DNA from: Lysobacterales bacterium | GTDB lineage: Bacteria; Pseudomonadota; Gammaproteobacteria; Xanthomonadales; SZUA-5 | Assembly: GCA_022844135.1 (NCBI GenBank) | Contig: JALHMG010000005.1 | Location: 91,691-155,690 of the forward strand | Length of the DNA stretch: 64,000 nt | Reading direction: 5' to 3' | Part shown: positions 2,531 to 56,940 of the stretch, one piece after another | Numbering within the stretch: position 1 is the stretch's first letter | Layout of the letters: each line of letters opens with the position of its first letter | Notes under the pieces: generated by a model | The model's input: only the letters and a program-made list of their open reading frames with translations | Told to the model about the DNA's origin: nothing | The model's database searches: none | Translations under genes and position numbers: made by a program

Positions 2531-2749
2531 TTACGCCGGGATTTGGAATATACGAACGCGACCATCAGGCATCAGCACCTTGATGCGATATACCACCGTA
2601 CCACGGGTACGGATGGTATCGGCGGACAACACCGTGCCCTTGGTGTCCTTTTCGACTTGCTCGATGGCCTCTTTCAAGGTCAACGCCCACGCAGGATCTG
2701 CGAGGAGGAGAGAAGCCGCGAATACTGCCAGGGACAAAGTACGGGTCAT
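2531..2749 (-). CDS. small secreted PepSY-domain protein
   Basis: Signal peptide MTRTLSLAVFAASLLLA followed by a PepSY-like core (LKEAIEQVEKDTKGTVLSAD...YRIKVLMPDGRV). Start set at the internal ATG 2749. The ORF upstream of that runs into the repeat region. Confidence 0.6.
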   Translation of the reverse strand: MTRTLSLAVFAASLLLADPAWALTLKEAIEQVEKDTKGTVLSADTIRTRGTVVYRIKVLMPDGRVRIFQIPA

Positions 2750-2843
2750 CGAAACCTTTATCGCATCCAATGCCTCGATCATAGTCGCGGCGCGGCGCGC
2801 ATGTTCGCAAGCTGCGACGCAGCGAAAGCTGAACGGGATGCGA

Positions 2844-2878
2844 GGGGCGGGGTACGGGGCACGGGGCACGGGGCGTGG
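2844..2878. repeat. degenerate GGGGCAC heptamer array (left arm of an inverted pair)
   Basis: Five GGGG tracts at 2844, 2849, 2856, 2863 and 2870: gaGGGGcGGGGtacGGGGcacGGGGcacGGGGcgtgg. Confidence 0.85.
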
Positions 2879-2963
2879 AGCCGATGCCGAGTGTCGAATG
2901 AGGAGTTTTTGGCCGGGCTCTGCCAGAAATCAAGTATCGTTCCAGGCCGGATATTCACCCGTT

Positions 2964-2999
2964 CCCCGTGCCCCGCGCCCCTTCATGCCCCTGATCCCC
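2964..2999. repeat. degenerate GTGCCCC heptamer array (right arm, inverted relative to 2844-2878)
   Basis: ccccgtgccccgcgcccc is the reverse complement of ggggcgcggggcacgggg, which has 1 mismatch to the left arm. Further CCCC tracts run into the first codons of the GNAT gene. Confidence 0.8.
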
Positions 3000-3497
3000 G
3001 CCACTCCCGCCGATGCACCTGCCCTGTCGATTCTGATGGAGCAGACTTTTCGCGCCGCGTATGGCGATGCTGCAAGCGAGGACAAACTAAAAATTCACGT
3101 TGCTCGCAGCTATGACCCGCAGGCGATTGCGCAGCGCCTGCGCTCGGGCGAGATCGGCATTTGGTATGCGCCCGGTGCTACGGATGCCGCGAGCGACGCG
3201 ATTGGCTACGTGCAATTGGGGTTCAATGTCTCGCCGCCGGCCGCATCGGGGCCGGCCATCGAAGTGCAGCGCTGCTATCTGCAGCCTGAAGCGATTGGCT
3301 CTGGCGCCGGCGCGTGGTTGATTGACATGGCCAAGCAGCAGGCGCAGGCGCGTGGCGTGGGTTTGTTTCTGTCGGTTTATCAGCTCGCGCCGCGGGCCAT
3401 TCGGTTCTACGAGAAACACGGCCTGCGCCGCGCGGCGGCTGTGAAGTACTACATCGCTGATGTGGAATTCGACGACTGGTTGATGGTTTGGCCATAG
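2985..3497 (+). CDS. GNAT-family N-acetyltransferase
   Basis: 170 aa. Acetyl-CoA pocket-like QPEAIGSGAGAWLI and C-terminal FYEKHGL motif. Start at ATG 2985 (MPLIPATP), in frame with the listed ORF. Confidence 0.7.
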   Translation: MPLIPATPADAPALSILMEQTFRAAYGDAASEDKLKIHVARSYDPQAIAQRLRSGEIGIWYAPGATDAASDAIGYVQLGFNVSPPAASGPAIEVQRCYLQPEAIGSGAGAWLIDMAKQQAQARGVGLFLSVYQLAPRAIRFYEKHGLRRAAAVKYYIADVEFDDWLMVWP

Positions 3498-4738
3498 GCC
3501 GCGCCAGCCAAAACGGCGGCGATCAACGTCAAGGTTCGCGGCACAGCGCCGCGCTCACGCTCGACGACGCCCAACGCGGCTGCAGACAGACGCTCAGCCA
3601 AGGCCGGGTCGCTCAGCACGCGGATCAACTGGGTGCCAAGCTGTGCGCCGTTTTGCACGCGGATCAAGGCTTGGTCGCGCAGCATGGTTTCGCAGACTTC
3701 GGCGAAGTTGAAGGTGTGCGGACCGGTCAGCACTGGTTTGCCGAGCGCAGCGGGCTCCAGAACGTTGTGACCGCCGATCGCATCCAGGCTGCCGCCGACG
3801 AAGGCCGCGTCGCTGCAGGCGAAAAACTTGAGCAGCTCACCCATGGTATCGACCACGAAACACTGCGAATCGCCGCCTGCAAGCGTGTCCTCGCTTCGGG
3901 AGGCGGTGCGAAAGCCGAACGATCGGCACAGACCGATCGCTGCTCGAAAGCGCTCCGGATGCCGCGGCACCAAGATCAGCAGCGCGTCGGGAAAGCGCCC
4001 GAGCACACGCGCATGCGCTTGCAATACGGCGGCCTCCTCGCCTTCGTGCGTGCTCGCCGCGATCCAAACGGGCCGCAGTGCACCCCAGTGCTCGCGAAAT
4101 CCGGCGGCCTCGGCGTCAAGGCCAGTCGGCACCGCCATATCGAATTTGATGTTGCCGACCACCTGTAACCTGTCCTCGGTCACGCCCAGGCGTCGAAAGC
4201 GTTCGGCATCGCCGTGCGACTGCGCGGCGACCAGATCCGCGCACTGCACCGCCTCGCGCATCAGCGCGATCGCCGGACCGTAACCGCGCAAACTACGTTC
4301 CGACAATCGCGCGTTGGCAATGAAGATCGGAATGCCAGAGCTCTTGCACGCGAAATACAGGTTCGGCCAGATCTCGGTTTCCATGACCACCGCAATGCGC
4401 GGTCTGACGCGCGCCATGAAGCGCTTGATCGCGCTCGGCAGGTCGTAAGGCAGGTACACATGGAACACCCGCGATCCCAGGCGCTTGACGACGCGCTCCG
4501 AACCGGTGGGCGTGATCGTCGTAACGACCATGGTGTCATTCGGATGCGCGGCCAACAACGCCTCGATGAGCGGCATAGCGGCATTGAACTCGCCCACCGA
4601 CACTGCGTGCACCCATATCGAGGAGCGAATATGCGCGTCGAACCAGCCGAAGCGTTCCAGCCAGCGCTTGAAGTAGCCGCGATTGCGCAGGCCGCGGAAC
4701 GCCAGGCGATACAAGATCACCGGCATCGCCAGATACAT
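3449..4738 (-). CDS. waaA: 3-deoxy-D-manno-octulosonic acid (Kdo) transferase
   Basis: Colinear with E. coli WaaA (HAVSVGE, TTITPTGSERV, YLPYDLP, ETEIWPN, ANARLSERS, STHEGEE, LVPRHPERF, GGHNVLEPAA). Start taken at ATG 4738. The alignment suggests a few more N-terminal residues and a possible non-ATG start near 4765. The remainder of the 793-aa ORF is antisense to lpxL. Confidence 0.85.
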   Translation of the reverse strand: MYLAMPVILYRLAFRGLRNRGYFKRWLERFGWFDAHIRSSIWVHAVSVGEFNAAMPLIEALLAAHPNDTMVVTTITPTGSERVVKRLGSRVFHVYLPYDLPSAIKRFMARVRPRIAVVMETEIWPNLYFACKSSGIPIFIANARLSERSLRGYGPAIALMREAVQCADLVAAQSHGDAERFRRLGVTEDRLQVVGNIKFDMAVPTGLDAEAAGFREHWGALRPVWIAASTHEGEEAAVLQAHARVLGRFPDALLILVPRHPERFRAAIGLCRSFGFRTASRSEDTLAGGDSQCFVVDTMGELLKFFACSDAAFVGGSLDAIGGHNVLEPAALGKPVLTGPHTFNFAEVCETMLRDQALIRVQNGAQLGTQLIRVLSDPALAERLSAAALGVVERERGAVPRTLTLIAAVLAGAAYGQTINQSSNSTSAM

Positions 4739-12620: not shown

Positions 12621-12750
12621 GGGTGTGAGCTGGAGCGAGGCACGGGGCATGGACAGCAACAGCGTGCATGCCTTCTGGCAGAGTGTGTCCAGTCCCGCGC
12701 CGCGCGCTTGCACTCCCGTGTCGCGCTTCCGGGGTCGCTCCATTGTCTCG

Positions 12751-12852
12751 CGTCCCGTGCCCCACGCCCCGCAGTTGCTGTCCCGTGCCACTTGCCTCAC
12801 GCTCCGTTCCTGCTGTCGCGTGCCCCGCGCCCCGTGCCCCGTGCCCCGCTCC
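12751..12852. repeat. GTGCCCC-type heptamer arrays in the spacer between 10230-12620 and 12914-13807
   Basis: cgtcccgtgccccacgccccgcag (12751-12774), gtcccgtgccac (12780-12791) and gtgccccgcgccccgtgccccgtgccccgct (12820-12850). An opposing gaggcacggggcatgg lies at 12638-12653. Confidence 0.8.
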
Positions 12853-28059: not shown

Positions 28060-28089
28060 ATTGGTTTTTGGTTGTTAGTTGCAGGACCG

Positions 28090-28611
28090 ATGCAAGCGTA
28101 TTTGAGCGGTCTATTTCTCATTTCATCTTTCGCCGTTCTGAGCAACTCGGCGTCTGTCAAAAATGACGAACCTGAAATCGTTGTCGATCGGCTCACAGGC
28201 TGCAGGGTTGAAGTGAACGGCCCTGGTCAGCGGGTTTTTCGCTGCCCAGAAACACTGTCCCTTTCAAGCGAAGCAGCGCGCGCACCCTTTGTGGATGAGC
28301 TGAAGCGCTTGGCGGGCAATAGCCCCAAGGAGTGTGGTTTGATCGGACTGGGGGATGCCGCCGAAGGCGCGATCGACTGCGCATTGCGAGCGCAAGCCAA
28401 TCGCAACAGCTTCTGGGTCGCGTTTCAAAGACAAGGAATCGACTCAGAACTCTGGACCGGCGCCGCGAGAGTTGGTGATTCGCTGGTGATCTTGAACTAC
28501 GACTCGAATGTCAGGGGACAATCTGAGATCGAACCGCACTTTTCGCGATACGTTTGCGAGAAGCTGCGTTTCGATCCCGATCACGTTTTGATGATTGCGT
28601 GCGCTCGGTAG
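28090..28611 (+). CDS. hypothetical secreted Cys-containing protein
   Basis: Sec-like signal MQAYLSGLFLISSFAVLSNSAS. No recognisable family. GC content is visibly lower than the flanks. Confidence 0.45.
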   Translation: MQAYLSGLFLISSFAVLSNSASVKNDEPEIVVDRLTGCRVEVNGPGQRVFRCPETLSLSSEAARAPFVDELKRLAGNSPKECGLIGLGDAAEGAIDCALRAQANRNSFWVAFQRQGIDSELWTGAARVGDSLVILNYDSNVRGQSEIEPHFSRYVCEKLRFDPDHVLMIACAR

Positions 28612-28665
28612 CTTTCGCACGCGTCCCTGCCGAATGCTGGTGCGCTATCCAGCGGAGAAGAGCAA

Positions 28666-29349
28666 ATGCCGACGCCAGAACTCGATACAACGCAACACGA
28701 CCTTGAATCAGTCTGGGAACTGAGAGAGGAGGTGTTGTATCCACAGCTGTTCGGCCCGGCATCCCGCGGCATCTTCGTACTGGAGGTCTCGGATTTCGCG
28801 GCTTTGGGCCATCCAGAGTGCGATCCACGTTGGTTGCATCTCGGCGTTTTCGAGTTTGCACCGACACCTGAGCGACCAAGCTGGCTGTACGCCACTTCCG
28901 GTGGTTCGACACCGTGGGAACAAGAACCCGATCAATACATGCCAGGCGCCGAATCCTGGCTTGGCTTCGAGTTCTTGATGGAGACGCCGCAACAGGCCGA
29001 TTGGCCGATCGTGTTGTTGAAACGACTATTCGCGTTTCAAGTGCTCGTCATGCATGGCCGCTTTGGCGACAAACCGAAAATCAGATACGGCGATCGGATT
29101 CCTATTCGCAGCCCCATCGATCGTGCGTCGTCGCAACTCGCTCATGTGATTGCCGTGGCGCCACAATGCGTACCAGCTCGTCAAACGTTGCCGTCGGGTT
29201 TCTTCGATTTCATTCAGTTCGTCGGCACCACGGGAGCAGAAATCGAGTTCGCAAAAGAGCACGGAACCGAAGCACTCAGGACGAGGCTGGCAGAGGCGGG
29301 CGCCGCCCCAGTCACGGATCCAGAACGTCCTGAAATTGCTATCCGATGA
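28666..29349 (+). CDS. suppressor-of-fused (SUFU)-like domain protein, possible orphan immunity protein
   Basis: Pattern typical of bacterial SUFU-family proteins: GVFEFAPTPERPSWLYATSGGS, GFEFLMETPQQADWPIVLLKRL, FIQFVGTTGAEIEFAKEHGTEAL. Assigned from memory of the family, not from an HMM hit. Confidence 0.55.
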   Translation: MPTPELDTTQHDLESVWELREEVLYPQLFGPASRGIFVLEVSDFAALGHPECDPRWLHLGVFEFAPTPERPSWLYATSGGSTPWEQEPDQYMPGAESWLGFEFLMETPQQADWPIVLLKRLFAFQVLVMHGRFGDKPKIRYGDRIPIRSPIDRASSQLAHVIAVAPQCVPARQTLPSGFFDFIQFVGTTGAEIEFAKEHGTEALRTRLAEAGAAPVTDPERPEIAIR

Positions 29350-29352
29350 GTA

Positions 29353-30717
29353 TCACAACTTAATCCGATAGCACGGCTTGTAAGCCTCCCCGCCCGGCAG
29401 CTTCATCCGGTGCTGCTCGACAAAGGCGCGCAGCAGGGCGTCCATGGCGCTCATGATCGCGGGTTCGCCGCTGATCTCGTAAGGGCCGTGGGCTTCGATG
29501 GCGCGGATGCCTTCTTCTTTGACGTTGCCCGCGACGATGCCGCTAAACGCACGGCGCAGGTCGGCCGCGAGCTCGTGGACGGGACGCCCGCGGTGCAATT
29601 CGAGCTTCGCCATCGCCTCGTGTGTGGGCGCGAAACGGTACTGGAAGGCGTCGGGAATTTTCAGCGTCCAGTTGTAGAAGAACGCGTCTTTGGTGTCGAT
29701 GCGATGCTCGGTGACCACGGCCATTTGCTGGCGCAAGTACTGCGCAACCTCGCGCGGGTTGTCGACAATGATCCGATAGCGCGAAGCGGCGTCATCGCCT
29801 AACACCAGACGCAGGAACGCATCGATCTGCTGGAAGTAGGCGGCGCTTTGCTTGGGCCCGGTGAACACCACCGGATACGGCGACTGGGCGTTGTCCGGGT
29901 GCAGCAAAATGCCCAGCAGATAAAGAATTTCCTCAGCCGTACCGACGCCGCCGGGGAACACGATGATCGCGTGGCCGACACGCACGAAAGCCTCCAGGCG
30001 CTTCTCGATGTCCGGCATGATCACCAGGTGATTGACGATCGGATTCGGCGACTCGGCGGCAATGATCCCAGGCTCGGTAATACCGATGTAGCGTGTATCG
30101 GTGAAGCGCTGCTTCGCATGCGCGATCGTGGCGCCTTTCATCGGGCCCTTCATCGCACCCGGTCCGCAGCCGGTGCAGATATCCAAGCCGCGAAGGCCCA
30201 GCTCATAGCCGACCTTCTTCGTGTACTCGTACTCGGTGCGCCCGATCGAATGGCCGCCCCAGCAGACCACCAGATTCGGCTCGCGTGCGGCGCGCAGGAT
30301 GCCGGCGTTGCGCAAGATGTCGAAGACCGCGTTGGTGATGCCCTCGGACTCGCCCATATTGGCGCGCGTCTTGATTTCGTTCTCGACGTACAGGATGTCG
30401 CGCAGCACCGCAAACAACAGGTGGCGGATGCCGCGGATGATTTCGCCGTCGACAAAAGCGCCGGCCGGCGCGTTGATCAGATCGAGCTTCACGCCGCGAT
30501 CTTGTTGTACAACGCGCACGTCGAAATCCGGATGCCGCGCCAGCACCGCACGCGCACTATCGCTCTCGCTGCCCGTCGTCAGCACCGCCAGCGCGCACTG
30601 ACGGAACAGCTGATACAAGCTACCAGTGGTCGCTTCCATCAATCGCCGAACTTCGGCCTTCGATAGCACGTCCATGCCGACTTCGGGATTGATGCGTGCG
30701 CTGATGCGTTGTTGCAT
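29353..30717 (-). CDS. ppnN: nucleotide 5'-monophosphate nucleosidase PpnN (LOG family)
   Basis: Colinear with E. coli PpnN/YgdH (LYQLFRQCALAV, RGVKLDLINAP, CWGGHSI, PGGVGTAEE). 454 aa from ATG 30717. The 15 extra codons of the listed ORF reach to within a few nt of the heptamer repeat (from 30751). Confidence 0.85.
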   Translation of the reverse strand: MQQRISARINPEVGMDVLSKAEVRRLMEATTGSLYQLFRQCALAVLTTGSESDSARAVLARHPDFDVRVVQQDRGVKLDLINAPAGAFVDGEIIRGIRHLLFAVLRDILYVENEIKTRANMGESEGITNAVFDILRNAGILRAAREPNLVVCWGGHSIGRTEYEYTKKVGYELGLRGLDICTGCGPGAMKGPMKGATIAHAKQRFTDTRYIGITEPGIIAAESPNPIVNHLVIMPDIEKRLEAFVRVGHAIIVFPGGVGTAEEILYLLGILLHPDNAQSPYPVVFTGPKQSAAYFQQIDAFLRLVLGDDAASRYRIIVDNPREVAQYLRQQMAVVTEHRIDTKDAFFYNWTLKIPDAFQYRFAPTHEAMAKLELHRGRPVHELAADLRRAFSGIVAGNVKEEGIRAIEAHGPYEISGEPAIMSAMDALLRAFVEQHRMKLPGGEAYKPCYRIKL

Positions 30718-30750
30718 GGTGAGGCTGGCCTTTTGCGTGGGGCGGGAATA

Positions 30751-30779
30751 GTCGATGGTCAAAGGTCAATGGTCAATGG
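30751..30779. repeat. GGTCAAT heptamer array, left arm of a perfect 19-bp inverted repeat
   Basis: gtcgatGGTCAAAGGTCAATGGTCAATgg. Positions 30751-30769 are the exact reverse complement of 30961-30979. Confidence 0.9.
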
Positions 30780-30960
30780 GATGTTGAAGACAGCTTCCCA
30801 TTTTGATGGACGCGATGGCCGGTCTGGTCGGTCAATAGTCAATCGGATAACAGAGGCGGCTCTTCCCGGCATCGGGGAGATGTCCTGGTTATTGGTCCGC
30901 TGGAAAAACGCGCAGCCGAAGGTGTGGCAAGACACGGACGATGCAATGGTCTGCTTCCGG

Positions 30961-30979
30961 TTGACCTTTGACCATCGAC
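30961..30979. repeat. right arm of the 19-bp inverted repeat (TTGACC units)
   Basis: ttgacctttgaccatcgac is the reverse complement of gtcgatggtcaaaggtcaa. Confidence 0.9.
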
Positions 30980-30991
30980 TCGCCGGGTCCT

Positions 30992-32002
30992 TCAGGCTGC
31001 CATCACCGCCAACTGATCGGACGTCACGCCGCCCTTGATCAACTTGGCGTTGAAGCCGCGTTCGGCAAGCAGGAACGTGGCGGAAGCGCTGCGGCGGCCA
31101 GTGTCGCAATAGATCCAGTATTCGAGTTCTGGATCGAGCAACTTTGCGGCGTCGCGAATGCGCGCGAGCGGGACGTTGATTGCGCCGGACAAATGACCGC
31201 GCTCATATTCGCCTGGCAGGCGCACATCGATCAGATGGACGCCAGACCGCAAATCGCTCAAGCTCGCTTCGCGCAACATCGGCGCCTTGAGCAGGCGCGA
31301 AAACTGCGCGCTCGCCAGGCGCATCAACTTGCAACGCGTCAACGCACGCACGGTGGCATTGCGCGGCTCGCCAGAAACCAGGGCCTCTTCGCCGAACCCA
31401 CGGCCGACACCAAGCTGCGCCAGCTCTTCCTCAGAGTGGCCGTCTTCCAGGATGACCTGGGCGCGGCCTTCGGTGATGACGTAGTAATAGTCGCCAGGAT
31501 CGCCCTGCTTGATGATGTTCTCGCCGGCCTGGATTTGCACGGCTTCCATGCTCGCCAGGATTTGCGCGATGTTGCCGGGCGGGATGCGCAGGAACGCTTT
31601 GCTTTGCAGCAACGCGGTCACCCAATCGGTGTCCCGCGCAGGATCGTCGACGCCGCCGGTCTGTGACCAGGTCAGCATCACGTCGAGCAACTCGCGATCG
31701 ACGAAGAGCACCTGACAGGCCTTGACGCAAAGCGCCGTGGCGGAGCGCCGATGTCCCGGCGCAAGCGCGTGTTTTGCGTCGGGGTCAGCTGCTGAAAGTC
31801 GCGTTGCCGACATCGACGCATCGACCAGATCGATTTCGCCGTCGATCAGGAACGCTTGCGTGCGCGCCATCTCGCCGCGATTGAAGATCACCTGACCCGG
31901 CTGGTAGTTGACCAGACTCGACTGCTTCGCCAGCTGTGTACGATCGGCGGGCGGCAGCGACTGCAAAGGCACGAAGCGCCCAAACAACCCGATGTTGACC
32001 AT
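30992..32002 (-). CDS. protein with two cNMP-binding domains and a C-terminal rhodanese domain
   Basis: The second cNMP domain is canonical (FGEEALVSGEPRNATVRA). The first is degenerate. Rhodanese has active-site loop YCDTGRRSA. It follows petC directly. The start could instead be at 32056. Confidence 0.8.
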   Translation of the reverse strand: MVNIGLFGRFVPLQSLPPADRTQLAKQSSLVNYQPGQVIFNRGEMARTQAFLIDGEIDLVDASMSATRLSAADPDAKHALAPGHRRSATALCVKACQVLFVDRELLDVMLTWSQTGGVDDPARDTDWVTALLQSKAFLRIPPGNIAQILASMEAVQIQAGENIIKQGDPGDYYYVITEGRAQVILEDGHSEEELAQLGVGRGFGEEALVSGEPRNATVRALTRCKLMRLASAQFSRLLKAPMLREASLSDLRSGVHLIDVRLPGEYERGHLSGAINVPLARIRDAAKLLDPELEYWIYCDTGRRSASATFLLAERGFNAKLIKGGVTSDQLAVMAA

Positions 32003-32061
32003 GGCGGCTATCCAATCCGTGATCGGGTTGGGCGCCACCGAACGGCGGCGCCCCAAAGGGT

Positions 32062-42247: not shown

Positions 42248-44473
42248 CTACCACCCGATCTTGAACTCAACGCCATACGTGCGCGGCATGTTGTAGTACG
42301 CGGCGGCGATGCCGAGTGCGCCGATGTCGAAGCCGCCGGTGATGTATTCCTTATCGGTCAGATTGCGGCCAAAAAGCGCGACCTCCCAGTTGCCGTCGCT
42401 CGGCGCATACGAGAACCGCGAGTCGACGAGCGTGTAGGCCTGCGTCTTGATCAGTTCGGAGTTGGCGACATTCTGATAGTGATCGTCGGTGAAATGGGCG
42501 TTGGCGCTCCAGGTGAAATCGCCCATCGTGGTCGGGATATCCCAGATGAAGCCCAGGTTGTAGGTCAGATCCGGCGCTTGCTTGAGCTCATTGGGAAAGG
42601 TCGGGGTGCCGGCAGCAATGAGCACGGCAGGATTGCTTTCGTACTCGCCATCGATGGTGCCGACATTACCGGTGAGCTGGAAGTTGTCGCTCAACATTGC
42701 CGCGAAATCGATTTCGATGCCTTGGATAATCACATCCGCCGCATTGCGCAGGACGAAGGCGCCGGTCGGGTCGATGGCGGTCAGTTGCAGATCGGTGTAG
42801 TCGTTGTAGTAGTAGTTCGCGTTCAGACGCATACGGCCACCGAGCAGCGTCGACTTGATGCCGAACTCGTAGCTCAGCACGTTCTCCTCATCGACCGTGG
42901 TGATCGCATCGCTGACCACGCCGGTTGCGCTGACGGTGATCGCTCCGCGACCGTTAAAGCCACCGCTCTTGAAACCGGTCGCGGCGCTGGCGTATGCCAT
43001 TACGTCGTCGTTGAAGCGATAGTCGAGCGCGAAGCGCCAGTCGACGCTGTTCCAGCTGTCTTCGCGATTGATCGCATACGAGGTCTGTCCGTTCGCGCAG
43101 CGAATCGGCGGGCCGAGCGGCGTGAACTGGCCATTGGTACACGTCGCGCTTTTGGAAAAGTCTTTGGTTTCGTCGCTGTAGCGCAGGCCGCCGGTGAAGC
43201 TGAAGCCATTGCCGAAGTCGAAAGTGCCTTGTCCGTAGATGGCGTACGCATCCGTGCCCTGCTCGATTTGTTCGATCACGCCTGGTGCGAAAATGCTTTG
43301 CTGCGTAGGTTGCTCGTTGGCCTCATCGAAATAAAATCCGCCGATCACCCAACGCAGGCTTCCCGCTTCGCCAGTGAACTGCGACTCGAAGCTCTTCTGG
43401 TCCTGCGTCTGGTCCTGGAAAATGTGCAAAAGAGTGGCGTTCTGGCCATCGAAATCGCCGTTCAACAAGTTGTCCATTTCGCGATAGGCGAGCACGTTTC
43501 GCCACGTGAAGTTTTCGAACTCGGTTTCCGACACCAGCGAAGCGCCGAATTGATCGAGATCGTTCTTGGTGCGCAGATTCGAGCTTAGCGTGTACGGATC
43601 GCCATCGGTGTCGCAACCGGGGTAGTTGAAGGGCGCCGGTGGTGTGGTCGATGGCGGGATCGGCGGTCGCGGCAGGGACAGCGGGCGCGATAGAACGCAG
43701 CTGGCCATACCCGGCCCGTTACGCTCGCGGACCACGTCGAAGGCAGCGTCAATAGTGGTGATGTCGCTCGCCGCCAGACGCAGCGTGGCGCGTGCCGAAT
43801 GCAGCTCTTGATCGTTGACATCGGCGCCCGTGGTCAGATTGGTCGAATAGCCATCGCGGTTCTTGGTCATCACCGCCACGCCGCCGCTGACGGCTTCGTT
43901 GAAGCCGAAGTAGGCGCTGCCGCGCAGGTCGCGACGCTCGAAGTTCCCGAACGCGCCGTCGACCGCAAAGGTATTGCTGCCGTCGGGTTTCTTGGTGATG
44001 TATTTGATCGCCCCGCCAGTCGCATTGCGGCCGTACAGCGTGCCCTGCGGCCCGCGCAGCACTTCGATGCGCTCGATGTCGTAGAGCGCAATTTGCGCGC
44101 CGGTTTGCCGCGGGATGTAGACATCGTCGATATAGATTGCAACCGCCGGATCGGCGGTGAACAAAGACTCGTCGGCGCCGACGCCACGCAGGAAGATCTT
44201 TGCCGCGCTGGAGGTGCCGGTGTTGTTCTCGATGATGATGTTGGGCGTGGTGTAGACGAGCTTGTCGAGCCTGTCGATCTGGAAATTCTCGAACTGCTCC
44301 TCGCCCACTGCAGTGATCGAAATCGGTACTTGTTGCAGCGACTCCTCGTAGCGCTGCGCCGTGACCGTGATCTCGTCCAGGCGCTGCGCTTCTTCGCTTT
44401 CCTCCTGCGCCCAGGCAGGCGACGCAAGGCCACTCACAATCGCAACCCACAACACGTGACGCGACAGCTTCAT
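42248..44473 (-). CDS. TonB-dependent outer-membrane receptor
   Basis: Signal peptide, TonB box/plug (DEITVTAQR, IFLRGVG) and C-terminal beta-barrel ending ...YGVEFKIGW. GGAGGGG RBS before ATG 44473. Confidence 0.9.
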   Translation of the reverse strand: MKLSRHVLWVAIVSGLASPAWAQEESEEAQRLDEITVTAQRYEESLQQVPISITAVGEEQFENFQIDRLDKLVYTTPNIIIENNTGTSSAAKIFLRGVGADESLFTADPAVAIYIDDVYIPRQTGAQIALYDIERIEVLRGPQGTLYGRNATGGAIKYITKKPDGSNTFAVDGAFGNFERRDLRGSAYFGFNEAVSGGVAVMTKNRDGYSTNLTTGADVNDQELHSARATLRLAASDITTIDAAFDVVRERNGPGMASCVLSRPLSLPRPPIPPSTTPPAPFNYPGCDTDGDPYTLSSNLRTKNDLDQFGASLVSETEFENFTWRNVLAYREMDNLLNGDFDGQNATLLHIFQDQTQDQKSFESQFTGEAGSLRWVIGGFYFDEANEQPTQQSIFAPGVIEQIEQGTDAYAIYGQGTFDFGNGFSFTGGLRYSDETKDFSKSATCTNGQFTPLGPPIRCANGQTSYAINREDSWNSVDWRFALDYRFNDDVMAYASAATGFKSGGFNGRGAITVSATGVVSDAITTVDEENVLSYEFGIKSTLLGGRMRLNANYYYNDYTDLQLTAIDPTGAFVLRNAADVIIQGIEIDFAAMLSDNFQLTGNVGTIDGEYESNPAVLIAAGTPTFPNELKQAPDLTYNLGFIWDIPTTMGDFTWSANAHFTDDHYQNVANSELIKTQAYTLVDSRFSYAPSDGNWEVALFGRNLTDKEYITGGFDIGALGIAAAYYNMPRTYGVEFKIGW

Positions 44474-44582
44474 AACCCCTCCCATACGATGACGAACGTT
44501 CCCCAACGCCAGAATGTTAGCGCGCAGTGAATCTAAATGGTATGAAGATAGGTCAATAGAGCTTGCAGCGGGAGGCTGGAGC

Positions 44583-44596
44583 GGGGCGCGGGGCAC
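44583..44596. repeat. two GGGGC(G/A)C heptamers (single arm)
   Basis: ggggcgc ggggcac. A lone ggtcaatag lies 30 nt upstream at 44551. Confidence 0.6.
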
Positions 44597-44679
44597 GCAA
44601 CCGCATCAAAGCGTTACCGTTCTTCCGCCTCATGGTCCCGTTATGATCGAAGGCAGAACGCCAGGGGAAGGATCTGACT

Positions 44680-46335
44680 ATGTCGCGCGGTGAGTCGCAG
44701 TTGGCATCACGGTTATCGATGTTCGTCCTGGTGTTCCTGACACTGTATGCCGTCTTCGCCTTTGTCGCATGGCGCACGCTGGACCAGGTGCGCGTCAAGG
44801 GGCCTTATTACACCGAGATCATGCTCGGCAACGAGTTAATCGCAGATGTTTTGCCGCCGCCGCAATACATCATCGAATCCTATTTGCTGACGCTGCAATT
44901 GATCGATGAGCGCGACCCATCGGAGATCAGTCGATTGATCGAAGAAGGCAACGAGCTGCGGGTGACCTACGAGGCACGACAGGAATACTGGAAGCGCGCG
45001 CTCGACGACAGCACAATGAAAGACTTGATGACGGTGACCGCTTCGCGGGCTGCCATGGAGTTTTTCCGGATACGCGATGATGTTTACATTCCCGCGATTC
45101 GGGCGGACGACCGCGTCGCGGCGCGCGCGGCGCTGGACCAGATGCGGCAGCGTTATGAAGCGCATCGTTACGCCATCGATGAAGTTTGGGAACTGGCCGA
45201 GACGCGTAATGCCGACTACGAAAAGCGCGCCGATGCGCTGATCGGAGAGCAGATCCGAACCTTGGTGATCTTGGCGATCGGCGTTGTGCTGGTCGTCGTC
45301 GTCATGGCCTGGTTCGCGCGCCGCTCCGCGCAGAGCTTGAGCGCGCGGGTGCTGTTGGTCTCCGATGTCGCAGGGCGCGTGGCGCAAGGCGATCTCACGA
45401 CCGAAGTACCGCCATCCGATGCCGGCGACGAAGCCGGACGCCTGCTCGGCGCCATCGGCGGCATGACACAAAGCTTGCGTGGGCTGGTGACGCGCGTGAA
45501 GCAGGCGTCGGTCGAGTTGATGAGTACCGCTACCGAGTTCGCTGCCACCAGCCGCCAGCAGGAAGCGACGGTGCAAGGCTTCGGCGCATCGACCAATGAG
45601 ATCGCGGCGGCGGTCAAGCAGATCGCAGCGACCAGCCAGGAGCTGCTGGCGACGATGGAAGGCTTGAATGCGGTGTCCGGGCAAACCGCAGATCTGGCCG
45701 AGGCCGGCCAGTCTGGCCTGTCGAATCTGGATAGCACGATGGATCGCCTGGCGCAGGCAGCGAACGCGATGAGCGCCCGTCTGGCGGCGATTCGCGAGGA
45801 AGCCGCGGAGATCACGGGCGTGGTGACTACGATCTCCAAGGTCGCCGACCAGACCAACTTGCTGTCGATCAATGCCGCCATCGAGGCGGAGAAGGCGGGC
45901 GAACAGGGTCTGGGCTTCCTGGTTTTGGCGCGCGAGATTCGCCGCCTGGCCGACCAGACCGCCGTGGCGACGCTGGACATCGAACAGATGGTCAAGCAGA
46001 TGCAAACCGCGGTGTCGGCCGGCGTCATGGAAATCGACCGCTTTGCCGAAGAAGTGCGTAGCGGCGTGGGGACCGTCGATCGCGTCGGCGGCCAGTTCGG
46101 GCAAATCATCAGCCAGGTAAAAACGCTCAGCGAACGCTTCGACACGGTCAATCACGGCATGCGCAGCCAGTCGCAAGGCGCGCGCCAGATCGGCGAAGCG
46201 ATGGGCCAATTGCTGGATGGCGCGCGCCAGACCTCGGTCTCGTTGCGCGAATTCAACGCCGCCACCGAAGGCTTGCGCGACGCCGTCACGGTCCTGAAAA
46301 CCGAGATCGCCAAGTTCAAGCTCGGCAACGACTGA
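44680..46335 (+). CDS. wspA: methyl-accepting chemotaxis protein, WspA-like
   Basis: Two TM helices flanking a helical periplasmic domain. HAMP domain. MCP signalling hairpin (ADQTNLLSINAAIEAEKAGEQGLGFLVLAREIRRLADQT). First gene of a wspABCDEFR-ordered cluster. Confidence 0.85.
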   Translation: MSRGESQLASRLSMFVLVFLTLYAVFAFVAWRTLDQVRVKGPYYTEIMLGNELIADVLPPPQYIIESYLLTLQLIDERDPSEISRLIEEGNELRVTYEARQEYWKRALDDSTMKDLMTVTASRAAMEFFRIRDDVYIPAIRADDRVAARAALDQMRQRYEAHRYAIDEVWELAETRNADYEKRADALIGEQIRTLVILAIGVVLVVVVMAWFARRSAQSLSARVLLVSDVAGRVAQGDLTTEVPPSDAGDEAGRLLGAIGGMTQSLRGLVTRVKQASVELMSTATEFAATSRQQEATVQGFGASTNEIAAAVKQIAATSQELLATMEGLNAVSGQTADLAEAGQSGLSNLDSTMDRLAQAANAMSARLAAIREEAAEITGVVTTISKVADQTNLLSINAAIEAEKAGEQGLGFLVLAREIRRLADQTAVATLDIEQMVKQMQTAVSAGVMEIDRFAEEVRSGVGTVDRVGGQFGQIISQVKTLSERFDTVNHGMRSQSQGARQIGEAMGQLLDGARQTSVSLREFNAATEGLRDAVTVLKTEIAKFKLGND

Positions 46336-56217: not shown

Positions 56218-56308
56218 GGAGAGGTGGCAGAGTGGTCGAATGCGCCGGATTCGAAATCCGGTTTACGGTTCTACCGTAACGTGGGTTCGAATCCCACCCT
56301 CTCCGCCA
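56218..56308 (+). tRNA. tRNA-Ser (CGA)
   Basis: GGAGAGGTGGCAGAGTGGTCGAATGCGCCGGATTCGAAATCCGG + long variable arm + GTGGGTTCGAATCCCACCCTCTCCGCCA. Confidence 0.95.
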
Positions 56309-56313
56309 TCAAC

Positions 56314-56350
56314 AAAGCCCAAGCTTTTGAAAGCTTGGGCTTTTTTGTTT
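56314..56350 (+). terminator. rho-independent terminator after tRNA-Ser
   Basis: 13-bp stem aaagcccaagctt/ttga/aagcttgggcttt, followed by tttgtttt. Confidence 0.8.
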
Positions 56351-56940
56351 TCGCAGCCACCGCTTACCATATTCTTAGCCATACATTGCAATGCGATGGG
56401 CAGCGATGGCATGCGCGCACTCTTGCCGGTTTCGATGGCCCACGTCAACCGCAGGCCGCTTGCGCAGTGCAATTTGAAGATCGCAATTTCCGGCGCAGTA
56501 CGCGCGCGTGCGCGCGATGCTTAGGGAAAATCGAACGCCAAAAATCTCGGCCCAAGTGCGCGCGCGCAAGGGCTGATCAATCTTTTGGTTCCGAAACGTC
56601 GCATGGTTCGTTGTCCGAGCGTTCCAAGCAGTCTTATCGAGTACGGTCCAGGCAATATTCTTACTGAGCGACAGCTTGCCCAGAATTGAACTCATTGCAA
56701 GTCACTCAAGTATCGCTCGGCGGTGCTGTTGGTGACCTCGCTTGTCACGACCACAGCCTCGTACCTATGGCAATCAACGTCGGCCTTGGCAGCGAATTGC
56801 AGCGCTCATTGGATATCTGTGACGATATAGGACGCGTGGTGTTGCGAGCGTTGTATCGGCTGATGGGGACGTGGGGGAATCGCCAAAGCAGGTTGGGCTG
56901 GCAGTTGAAACTCGATCACGTTCAGTGCAGTCTTTCTCCT

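Follow-up and report, generated by a model that had tools for sequence, protein, structure and literature searches.

What is the pair of inverted heptamer arrays that precedes ppnN, the gene for nucleotide 5'-monophosphate nucleosidase, in a Lysobacterales bacterium (contig JALHMG010000005.1), and what kind of process put it there? The locus lies in a 64-kb stretch of DNA (64,000 nucleotides (nt); the window), whose coordinates are used throughout. Arrays are read on the sense (minus) strand unless stated otherwise, and L-numbers (L002–L439) denote loci retrieved from other genomes or metagenomes, with L010–L013 as the closest strain group. The intergenic spacer upstream of ppnN holds three short arrays of 7-nt units, A, B and C, and array A forms a perfect inverted repeat with part of array C. 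This locus is neither a gene, nor a known RNA, nor a demonstrable transposon. It is probably a cluster of heptameric simple-sequence repeats (SSRs), intergenic and specific to its lineage, that arose by slippage and whose arms were homogenised by template switching. The arrays, their spacer and the two flanking genes are located as follows.

30718–30991, minus strand: intergenic spacer of 274 base pairs (bp) between the stop codon of a cNMP-binding/rhodanese gene and the start of ppnN; holds arrays A, B and C.
30961–30980, minus strand: array A, the distal arm, AGTCGAT GGTCAAA GGTCAA; begins 11 nt past the upstream stop codon.
30830–30843, minus strand: array B, internal, ATTGACT ATTGACC; a direct paralogue of part of array C.
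30750–30779, minus strand: array C, adjoining ppnN, ATTGACC ATTGACC TTTGACC ATCGACT; ends 32 nt before the ATG, with 30750–30769 as the proximal arm.
29353–30717, minus strand: ppnN, 454 amino acids, with the Pfam domains PpnN_C, DUF4478 and Lysine_decarbox; homologues have 454–457 amino acids and assign the source to Xanthomonadales.
30992–32056, minus strand: upstream gene with two cNMP-binding domains and a rhodanese domain (Pfam); the gene pair is kept in all relatives.

A repeat search returned a perfect inverted repeat of 20 nt (100% complementary), formed by AGTCGATGGTCAAAGGTCAA at 30750–30769 and TTGACCTTTGACCATCGACT at 30961–30980 with 191 nt between the arms. The initial annotation, made from the letters of the window, had described this repeat as exact over 19 bp, one base short of its full extent, and had correctly pointed to two further units in its interior, which constitute array B (GGTCAAT AGTCAAT at 30830–30843 in the plus-strand reading). 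The arms are made of (A/G)GTC(A/G)A(T/A) heptamers, and the perfect match joins array A to the last three units of array C. On the sense strand the order is stop codon, 11 nt, A, 117 nt, B, 52 nt, C, a 32-nt leader and the ppnN ATG. Arrays A and C each abut a gene end in the orientation GGTCAA...TTGACC on either strand; because these outer arrays abut gene ends and read away from them, they converge and form an inverted repeat. Array B is related to both, as 30830–30848 is a 19-nt direct copy (89% identical) of 30764–30782 in array C and array B is 83% complementary to array A. The repeat finder TRF assigns array C a period of 7 and 4.7 copies (30747–30779), and the period-7 block spans 30755–30780. 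The G+C fraction of the spacer is 0.53–0.56, against about 0.62 in the flanks.

Within the window the sequence of the arms is local to this spacer. The 19-mer arm has no other match at up to three mismatches save its own register shift (0.01 expected), and seven of the ten matches to the two-unit sequence GGTCAANGGTCAA at up to two mismatches (3.1 expected) fall inside the ppnN spacer. Taken singly, the heptamer GGTCAAT shows no enrichment across the window (8 copies vs 5.9 expected), so the lone copy at 44551, for which a role as the -35 hexamer of a TonB-dependent receptor gene had been proposed, is within chance and carries no weight. Two open reading frames (ORFs) that overlap the spacer gave no Pfam match, and a small-ORF reading of the spacer was dropped on these grounds. 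A search of 30500–31200 against Rfam 15 found no family; the best result was a chance match to a small nucleolar RNA, at 12.6 bits vs a 39-bit threshold (E = 1.1).

Apart from G-quadruplex potential, every structural feature of the locus appears to match a class of repeats described by Rehm et al. 2015 (PMC4692102) in the same order, Xanthomonadales. In Xanthomonas campestris and X. axonopodis, GGGAATC heptamer repeats occur at ~185 loci per genome, 89–93% of them intergenic and mostly between co-directional ORFs, at mean distances of 28 nt to the 5'-side ORF and 160 nt to the following one. Their G-rich strand is the sense strand when they follow a stop codon and the antisense strand when they precede an ORF, 70–75 cases consist of two convergent arrays forming an inverted repeat, and length and sequence vary extensively between the two species; a function was not found. 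The ppnN locus has the same tandem 7-nt units (usually 2–4 or more copies), lies between co-directional ORFs (both flanking genes are on the minus strand), contains a convergent inverted pair and varies strongly between genomes. Its arrays also obey the rule of orientation and proximity: 11 nt separate array A from a stop codon, and array C, on the antisense strand, comes within 32 nt of the ppnN start. It differs in that its arms are 191 nt apart, in its third, internal array and in that 64 kb hold one such locus. Furthermore, GGTCAA(T/A) lacks G-tracts, which rules out the G-quadruplex stressed in that study: the criterion is four or more G-tracts of at least three G, and the GGTCAAT unit has only GG. 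The neighbouring GGGGCAC arrays of the window do contain four or more such tracts. With the ppnN locus, the known heptameric intergenic repeats of Xanthomonadales gain a unit that lacks quadruplex potential, and the GGTCAAT pair speaks against G-quadruplex formation as what underlies the convergent-array architecture.

The closest strains show how the arrays change. In L010–L013, PpnN is 99% identical to that of the window, ppnN DNA 95.0% and its third codon positions 86.4%. The L010 spacer (283 bp) has 27 extra nt past the stop codon and carries all three arrays in the same places: array A as AGTCAAT GGTCAAT AGTAAAT AGTCAAT, with a GCGAGTC flank in common with the window; array B as ATTGACC ATTTACT ATTGACC ATTGACT; and array C as ATTGACC ATTGCCC ATTCACC ATCGACT, three substitutions away from the window. 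Unit number thus differs between strains (A/B/C counts of 4/4/4 in L010 vs 3/2/4 in the window), and at most two identical units are adjacent in the window arrays. The near-perfect pair also differs: A is matched to B in L010 (93% complementary over 40 nt, with 81 nt in between) and to C in the window. We considered that array A of the window might correspond to an extra outer array of L010, and dropped this assignment as global alignment sets it against L010 array A, with the common GCGAGTC flank. Outside the last 65 nt before the ATG, the two spacers are 77% identical over ungapped columns and 50% identical counting gaps, no better than synonymous sites. The last 65 nt, which include the first TTGACC, are 94% identical vs 86% at synonymous sites, an excess that is not significant (4 mismatches vs ~9 expected).

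Beyond this strain group the arrays are gone. The 117-bp spacer of L014 (PpnN 95% identical) has neither arrays nor an inverted repeat, and its predicted fold is unremarkable (z = -0.5). L014 was set aside as a reference for the empty site, being too diverged for that purpose: identity at third codon positions is only 58% and the spacer does not align reliably. Six further lineages (77–87% PpnN identity) keep the gene pair and lack the arrays in its spacer. Since the arrays vary in L010 and are absent from L014 and from these six lineages, they are young at this locus, restricted to a single sublineage and no slower to evolve than neutral sites. The comparison between strains that the initial annotation had in view thus finds the arrays in L010–L013 with other unit counts and misses them in L014 and farther relatives. 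In two of the six lineages (L015 2761–3000 and L021 2702–3000; ~86% PpnN identity) the ppnN spacer holds palindromes, GTAGAGCCGAGCTTGCTCGGC and GGCGGAGCAAGCTCCGCTCTGC, that resemble repetitive extragenic palindromic (REP) elements, of which the window has no copy. The spacer therefore appears to tolerate several kinds of repeat insertion. As a separate observation, lineages at ~85% PpnN identity (L437 1440–1500, L439 1440–1500, L015 2950–3000) carry a short GC-rich hairpin, e.g. GCGCAACCAGAGTTGCGC, just upstream of the ppnN ribosome-binding site CAAGGACG, where the sequence of the window is unrelated.

How could orthologous arrays diverge while each strain keeps one well-matched pair? In the explanation we favor, units would be gained, lost and allowed to drift through replication slippage in a 7-nt register, and inverted copies would arise, and stay identical, through polymerase template switching between arms (quasi-palindrome correction). 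Template switching would leave one perfect or near-perfect arm pair per strain although the orthologous arrays differ, and another pair in each strain. Units 1 and 2 of array A in the window (AGTCGAT and GGTCAAA) differ from those of L010 (AGTCAAT and GGTCAAT) exactly at the positions where the difference renders them complementary to array C of the window. The A–C match is all Watson-Crick, with zero G-U pairs, which looks more like DNA copying than like selection at the RNA level. Template switching is known to homogenise inverted-repeat arms through multi-nucleotide changes (PMC8604942, PMC7202029, PMC5941160) and would account for the perfection, within a strain, of different arm pairs. 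Documented cases of it usually involve arms a few to tens of nt apart, unlike the 81–191 nt over which we infer it here from two alleles. On this account the locus would be a compact natural example of inverted-repeat homogenisation, in which array turnover matches or exceeds that at synonymous sites and one arm pair is nonetheless kept near-perfect. Secondary effects could follow from the same sequence: a transcript crossing the spacer could fold a 20-bp stem with 191 nt looped out, and the first TTGACC of array C, with GACTAT 17 nt downstream, may serve as a weak ppnN promoter. Such roles are compatible with the slippage explanation and would be secondary to it.

Is the process specific to this unit? 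A period scan of the window (blocks of at least three units with at least 12/14 self-matches; locally shuffled sequence as control) yielded 6 period-7 blocks vs 0.23 in shuffles and none at periods 8–12, so the distribution of the arrays is non-random. Period-6 blocks numbered 12 vs 2.7 in shuffles; our guess is that these reflect codon periodicity. Three unrelated heptamer units occur in the window, GGGGCAC, GGTCAAT and TTGGTTN. GGGGCAC arrays lie at 2847–2981, 12744–12852 and 44583–44596, and the arrays other than those of the ppnN spacer include the following.

2849–2981, no strand assigned: GGGGCAC inverted pair; arms 2849–2872 and 2958–2981, 24 nt, 88% complementary, 85 nt apart.
12819–12852, no strand assigned: GTGCCCC array in direct orientation only, with more degenerate copies at 12744–12816.
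28061–28081, plus strand: TTGGTTN array of 3 units, the third heptamer family; the L010 orthologue has 4 units.

Across the whole window, the search for inverted repeats of at least 16 nt within 400 nt listed six pairs, comprising one terminator-like hairpin, two overlapping palindromes, the GGTCAAT pair and the GGGGCAC pair (two overlapping rows). The ppnN-spacer pair and the GGGGCAC pair are thus the only spaced inverted repeats in 64 kb. The initial annotation had proposed that the ppnN locus repeats the layout of the GGGGCAC elements with an unrelated unit, and had named a lack of other heptamer-array inverted repeats as evidence that would speak against it. The shared layout holds, and the pair at 2849–2981 is a further repeat of this kind. 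From the layout it had also argued for a mechanism that acts on heptamer arrays whatever their unit. Such a unit-independent process fits the common layout together with the enriched period-7 arrays of at least three unrelated units. As a new idea it does not stand, as a slippage-type mechanism is already the standing hypothesis in the literature (PMC4692102): a 2007 survey, as cited there, found heptamers over-represented among bacterial SSRs and proposed slippage tied to the footprint size of the polymerase active site. The TTGGTTN family, too, varies between strains. Its array (AACCAAN on the opposite strand) begins 1 nt past the stop codon of a PAS-GGDEF-EAL gene, and its L010 counterpart (4452–4480) has 4 units and 18 extra nt vs 3 units in the window.

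Arrays of the GGTCAAN type are also found far outside this lineage. In 185,579 species-representative genomes the 19-mer arm has nine single matches, at least five of them within intergenic heptamer arrays of GGTCAAN, TTGACCN or TCGACCN units (L002 1640–1800, L004 2363–2441, L005 1815–1990, L007 7078–7195, L009 3060–3166) in Deinococcota, Gemmatimonadaceae, Planctomycetota, Allomuricauda and an unclassified bacterium. Some of these have an inverted partner or lie beside other heptamer arrays (AGCCNNA, TCTGATN, GCGTCAN). A metagenome scan for GGTCAANGGTCAANGGTCAA, three GGTCAAN units, gave at least 120 loci (L031–L150). Among the matches listed, 26 contigs exceed 55% G+C, and most of their arrays are non-coding and lie directly after stop codons or by start codons; the GGTCAAN arrays in the high-GC contigs listed begin 0–12 nt past stop codons on the sense strand. 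Judged from flanking translations, the array of L045 lies between two ribosomal-protein genes and that of L031 between glycolysis genes. L070 has a run of six perfect units up against a start codon. It is also frequent for an array to drift into other heptamer units (L085, L098, L113) or to adjoin GGGGCGA arrays (L086). An inverted TTGACC array lies within 300 nt at 6 to 8 of the 120 listed loci, convergent in all but one case, as are the pairs of L004, L009 and the window. At 30 nt or less from the stop codon of a long ORF, the matches listed include 14 GGTCAAN arrays on the sense strand vs 4 TTGACCN arrays (two-sided binomial p ~0.03, our own estimate). This polarity agrees with the one published for GGGAATC repeats in Xanthomonas.

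Counts in viral contigs do not isolate a heptamer-specific effect. Three-unit loci numbered 47 for GGTCAAN and 46 for GGGGCAN, vs 19, 13 and 6 for the permuted controls GGACTAN, GTGCAAN and GACGTAN; the period-8 sequence GGTCAANN gave 35 loci and GGTCAA at period 6 at least 120, the latter suspected to be in-frame repeats within genes. A bolder proposal takes GGTCAAN and GGGGCAN arrays as cross-phylum polar gene-boundary elements, laid down by a dedicated 7-nt-register process or selected for pairing between the 3' end of one cistron and the 5' leader of the next; we regard it as a long shot. The general pattern it rests on would be one in which arrays lie on the sense strand 0–12 nt past stop codons and on the antisense strand before starts, and paired arrays almost always converge. 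If it were true, array A would pair with array C in the window and loop out the rhodanese–ppnN spacer, coupling or processing the two messages. The recurrence at gene boundaries in several phyla with consistent polarity would matter more if it held genome-wide. Two side observations concern GGGGCAC-like arrays elsewhere. A Xanthomonadales metagenome-assembled genome with 86% PpnN identity (L025 6720–6751) has GGGGCAC x3 near a called mutS start, so such arrays are shared across the clade and not specific to the strain of the window. In an unrelated high-GC contig (L086 7480–7620), GGGGCGA-type arrays lie beside GGTCAAC-type arrays, echoing the arrangement at 44551–44596 of the window (GGTCAAT by GGGGCGC GGGGCAC).

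Several of these results weigh against slippage with template switching as the full account of the ppnN spacer. The arrays are short (2–4 units) and imperfect, and as such are a poor substrate for classical slippage; template switching over 191 nt is itself a step of inference. With two array-bearing alleles to compare, concerted evolution would look the same as selection for pairing. GGTCAAN arrays also recur in intergenic DNA of unrelated phyla; their bias in orientation relative to ORFs and their bias toward convergent pairs would suggest selection or a directed process more than neutral mutation. The period-8 count of GGTCAA triplets in viral contigs (35 loci) is close to the period-7 count (47). 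Finally, the 94% conservation of the last 65 nt before the ATG makes some function of the proximal array possible. Nonetheless, we hold slippage and template switching to be the likelier origin of the locus, and the alternatives below are judged against it.

The initial annotation had read array C as part of the ppnN promoter, and the three copies of TTGACC that it cited on the minus strand are present at 30776–30771, 30769–30764 and 30762–30757, 40–59 nt before the ppnN ATG (30717–30715). On this reading array C would supply one or more -35 hexamers, the copies either preserving a -35 despite slippage or making expression phase-variable. Each copy matches TTGACA at 5/6 positions, and their 7-nt spacing follows from the 7-nt repeat unit. 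A scan for sigma-70 promoters (-35 and -10 hexamers 16–18 nt apart with at least 9/12 consensus matches) found no pair in 30500–31200 or, around the lone GGTCAAT, in 44400–44720; the strongest candidate, read manually, is below this threshold.

30748–30776, minus strand: best candidate sigma-70-like promoter, TTGACC (30776–30771), 17-nt spacer, GACTAT (30753–30748); 8/12 consensus matches.

Its -10 hexamer reaches only 3/6, with A2 and T6 present. The hexamers, their spacing and the 32-nt leader are all kept in L010, where units 2–3 of array C are mutated, and lie in the last 65 nt, whose 94% identity (86% at synonymous sites) speaks for the promoter to an extent limited by the lack of significance noted above. 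All other relatives have unrelated sequence without arrays upstream of ppnN, and the absence of arrays in every relative at or below 95% PpnN identity means that they are no conserved control element of ppnN. In other organisms such arrays lie directly after stop codons and inside operons, where a promoter is unexpected. We consequently find the promoter reading unsupported and improbable. Transcription could instead run through the spacer, either together with the upstream gene or in an extended ppnN leader, and the stem of A with C (A with B in the sister strain) would then be a selected double-stranded element that may act as an RNase III processing site, as an mRNA stabilizer or by bringing the upstream stop codon near the ppnN start. 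Read-through is plausible, since a terminator scan found no minus-strand intrinsic terminator between the two genes. The 20-bp stem predominates in the predicted sense-strand fold (-100.6 kcal/mol, z = -4.9), the L010 fold is stronger still (-133.5 kcal/mol, z = -8.5), and one near-perfect arm pair is kept per strain despite differing arrays. A duplex of ~20 bp is about the minimum substrate of RNase III. A precedent exists in the Haemophilus influenzae hmw genes, where a heptamer SSR in the 5' untranslated region (UTR) forms a long hairpin that RNase III processes (PMC12721329). Against a selected RNA, the paired partner differs between the two strains, the perfect Watson-Crick match without G-U pairs looks like DNA copying, no Rfam family matched, and relatives at or below 95% PpnN identity have neither hairpin nor arrays, as in L014 with its fold at z = -0.5 and no inverted repeat. 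On balance a selected hairpin seems doubtful, to about the same degree as the promoter.

Two further alternatives are a mobile element and a row of protein-binding sites. The locus could be a non-autonomous transposon, of the MITE type (miniature inverted-repeat transposable element), of 231 bp with 20-bp terminal inverted repeats (161 bp and 40-bp repeats in L010), that would have entered a short ancestral spacer. The size (class 100–400 bp) and the terminal inverted repeats fit, the L014 spacer measures 117 bp vs 274 and 283 bp, and in other lineages REP-like elements have landed in this spacer. A direct duplication is missing, however, from the flanks (...GGCG|AGTCGAT and ATCGACT|ATTCCC on the sense strand), and L014, with third codon positions 58% identical, is too diverged to represent the empty site. 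No second copy of the core was found in the window or the 436 retrieved loci, and the 19-mer arm is never paired across the 185,579 genomes, one per species, its nine matches all being single. The ends of the supposed element are simple heptamer arrays common to unrelated loci with unrelated cores. REP/BIME and MITE families such as Correia and ERIC are likewise short, structured, intergenic and strain-variable DNA at the same kind of site, but each is present in many copies whose unit or core is conserved, and MITEs also carry target duplications; at the ppnN locus only heptamer arrays recur, not the core. Nor is the unit a REP or REPIN, being a direct heptamer array and not a palindrome, although no search was made for a RAYT gene. 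A mobile element is therefore very improbable. Still less probable is a row of contiguous 7-bp sites bound cooperatively by a small DNA-binding protein, in the manner of the omega repressor (ParB) on the parS/promoter sites of pSM19035. Contiguous direct and inverted heptads are exactly the architecture of omega sites (PMC9499535), and the arrays do sit at gene boundaries. A candidate binding protein was not identified, the unit differs from WATCACW, the number and sequence of units vary freely between close strains, and the same genome contains several unrelated units.

A heptamer cluster of this kind has several known counterparts besides the Xanthomonas repeats. The phase-variable (ATCTTTC)n repeat in the 5'-UTR of H. 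influenzae hmw1A (PMC12721329) is also a heptamer SSR upstream of a gene, where it supplies one side of a long RNA hairpin. Its perfect units number at least 10, its opposite arm is a non-repeat G-rich tract and its phase variation is shown experimentally, in contrast with the 2–4 imperfect units of the ppnN locus. It could nevertheless serve as a model for how a ppnN-type array might act through RNase III. The heptanucleotide repeats of cyanobacteria known as STRR, as cited in PMC4692102, and the TAACTGA repeats of Beggiatoaceae, cyanobacteria and Bacteroidetes (PMC4679880) are both dispersed intergenic tandem heptamers close to the starts and ends of genes, with variable copy number and a patchy phylogenetic distribution. 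The TAACTGA repeats are nearly always direct (169 direct sets vs 1 indirect). Both groups differ from the ppnN locus in phylum and in unit. One unit of the original STRR report is reportedly TTGGTCA, which has GGTCA in common with the ppnN-locus unit.

Some observations remain that touch the neighborhood of these features. On the minus strand at 30737–30762, the third TTGACC is followed 14 nt on by CCCCAC, in a segment that is identical in L010 and resembles the Escherichia coli sigma-32 consensus (TTGAAA, 13–15 nt, CCCCATNT). The true start of the cNMP-binding/rhodanese gene is probably near 31999, judging from orthologues of 335–345 amino acids. The C-rich arm of the GGGGCAC pair (2958–2987 region) stops 3 nt before an in-frame ATG at 2985 of the ORF 2580–3497; this ATG has no room for a Shine-Dalgarno sequence, so that the start would lie further downstream or the array would be part of the leader. 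The longest close inverted repeat of the window is an intrinsic-terminator-like hairpin at 56301–56356 (AAAGCCCAAGCTTT/AAAGCTTGGGCTTT, then a T-run). Between the ppnN stop codon and the TTGGTTN array, ~1.2 kb of the window (~28106–29294) includes parts of a SUFU-domain ORF (28666–29349, plus strand) and of an ORF at 28072–28611. L010 lacks this region yet keeps the last ~45 nt of the SUFU ORF, which looks like a deletion in L010.

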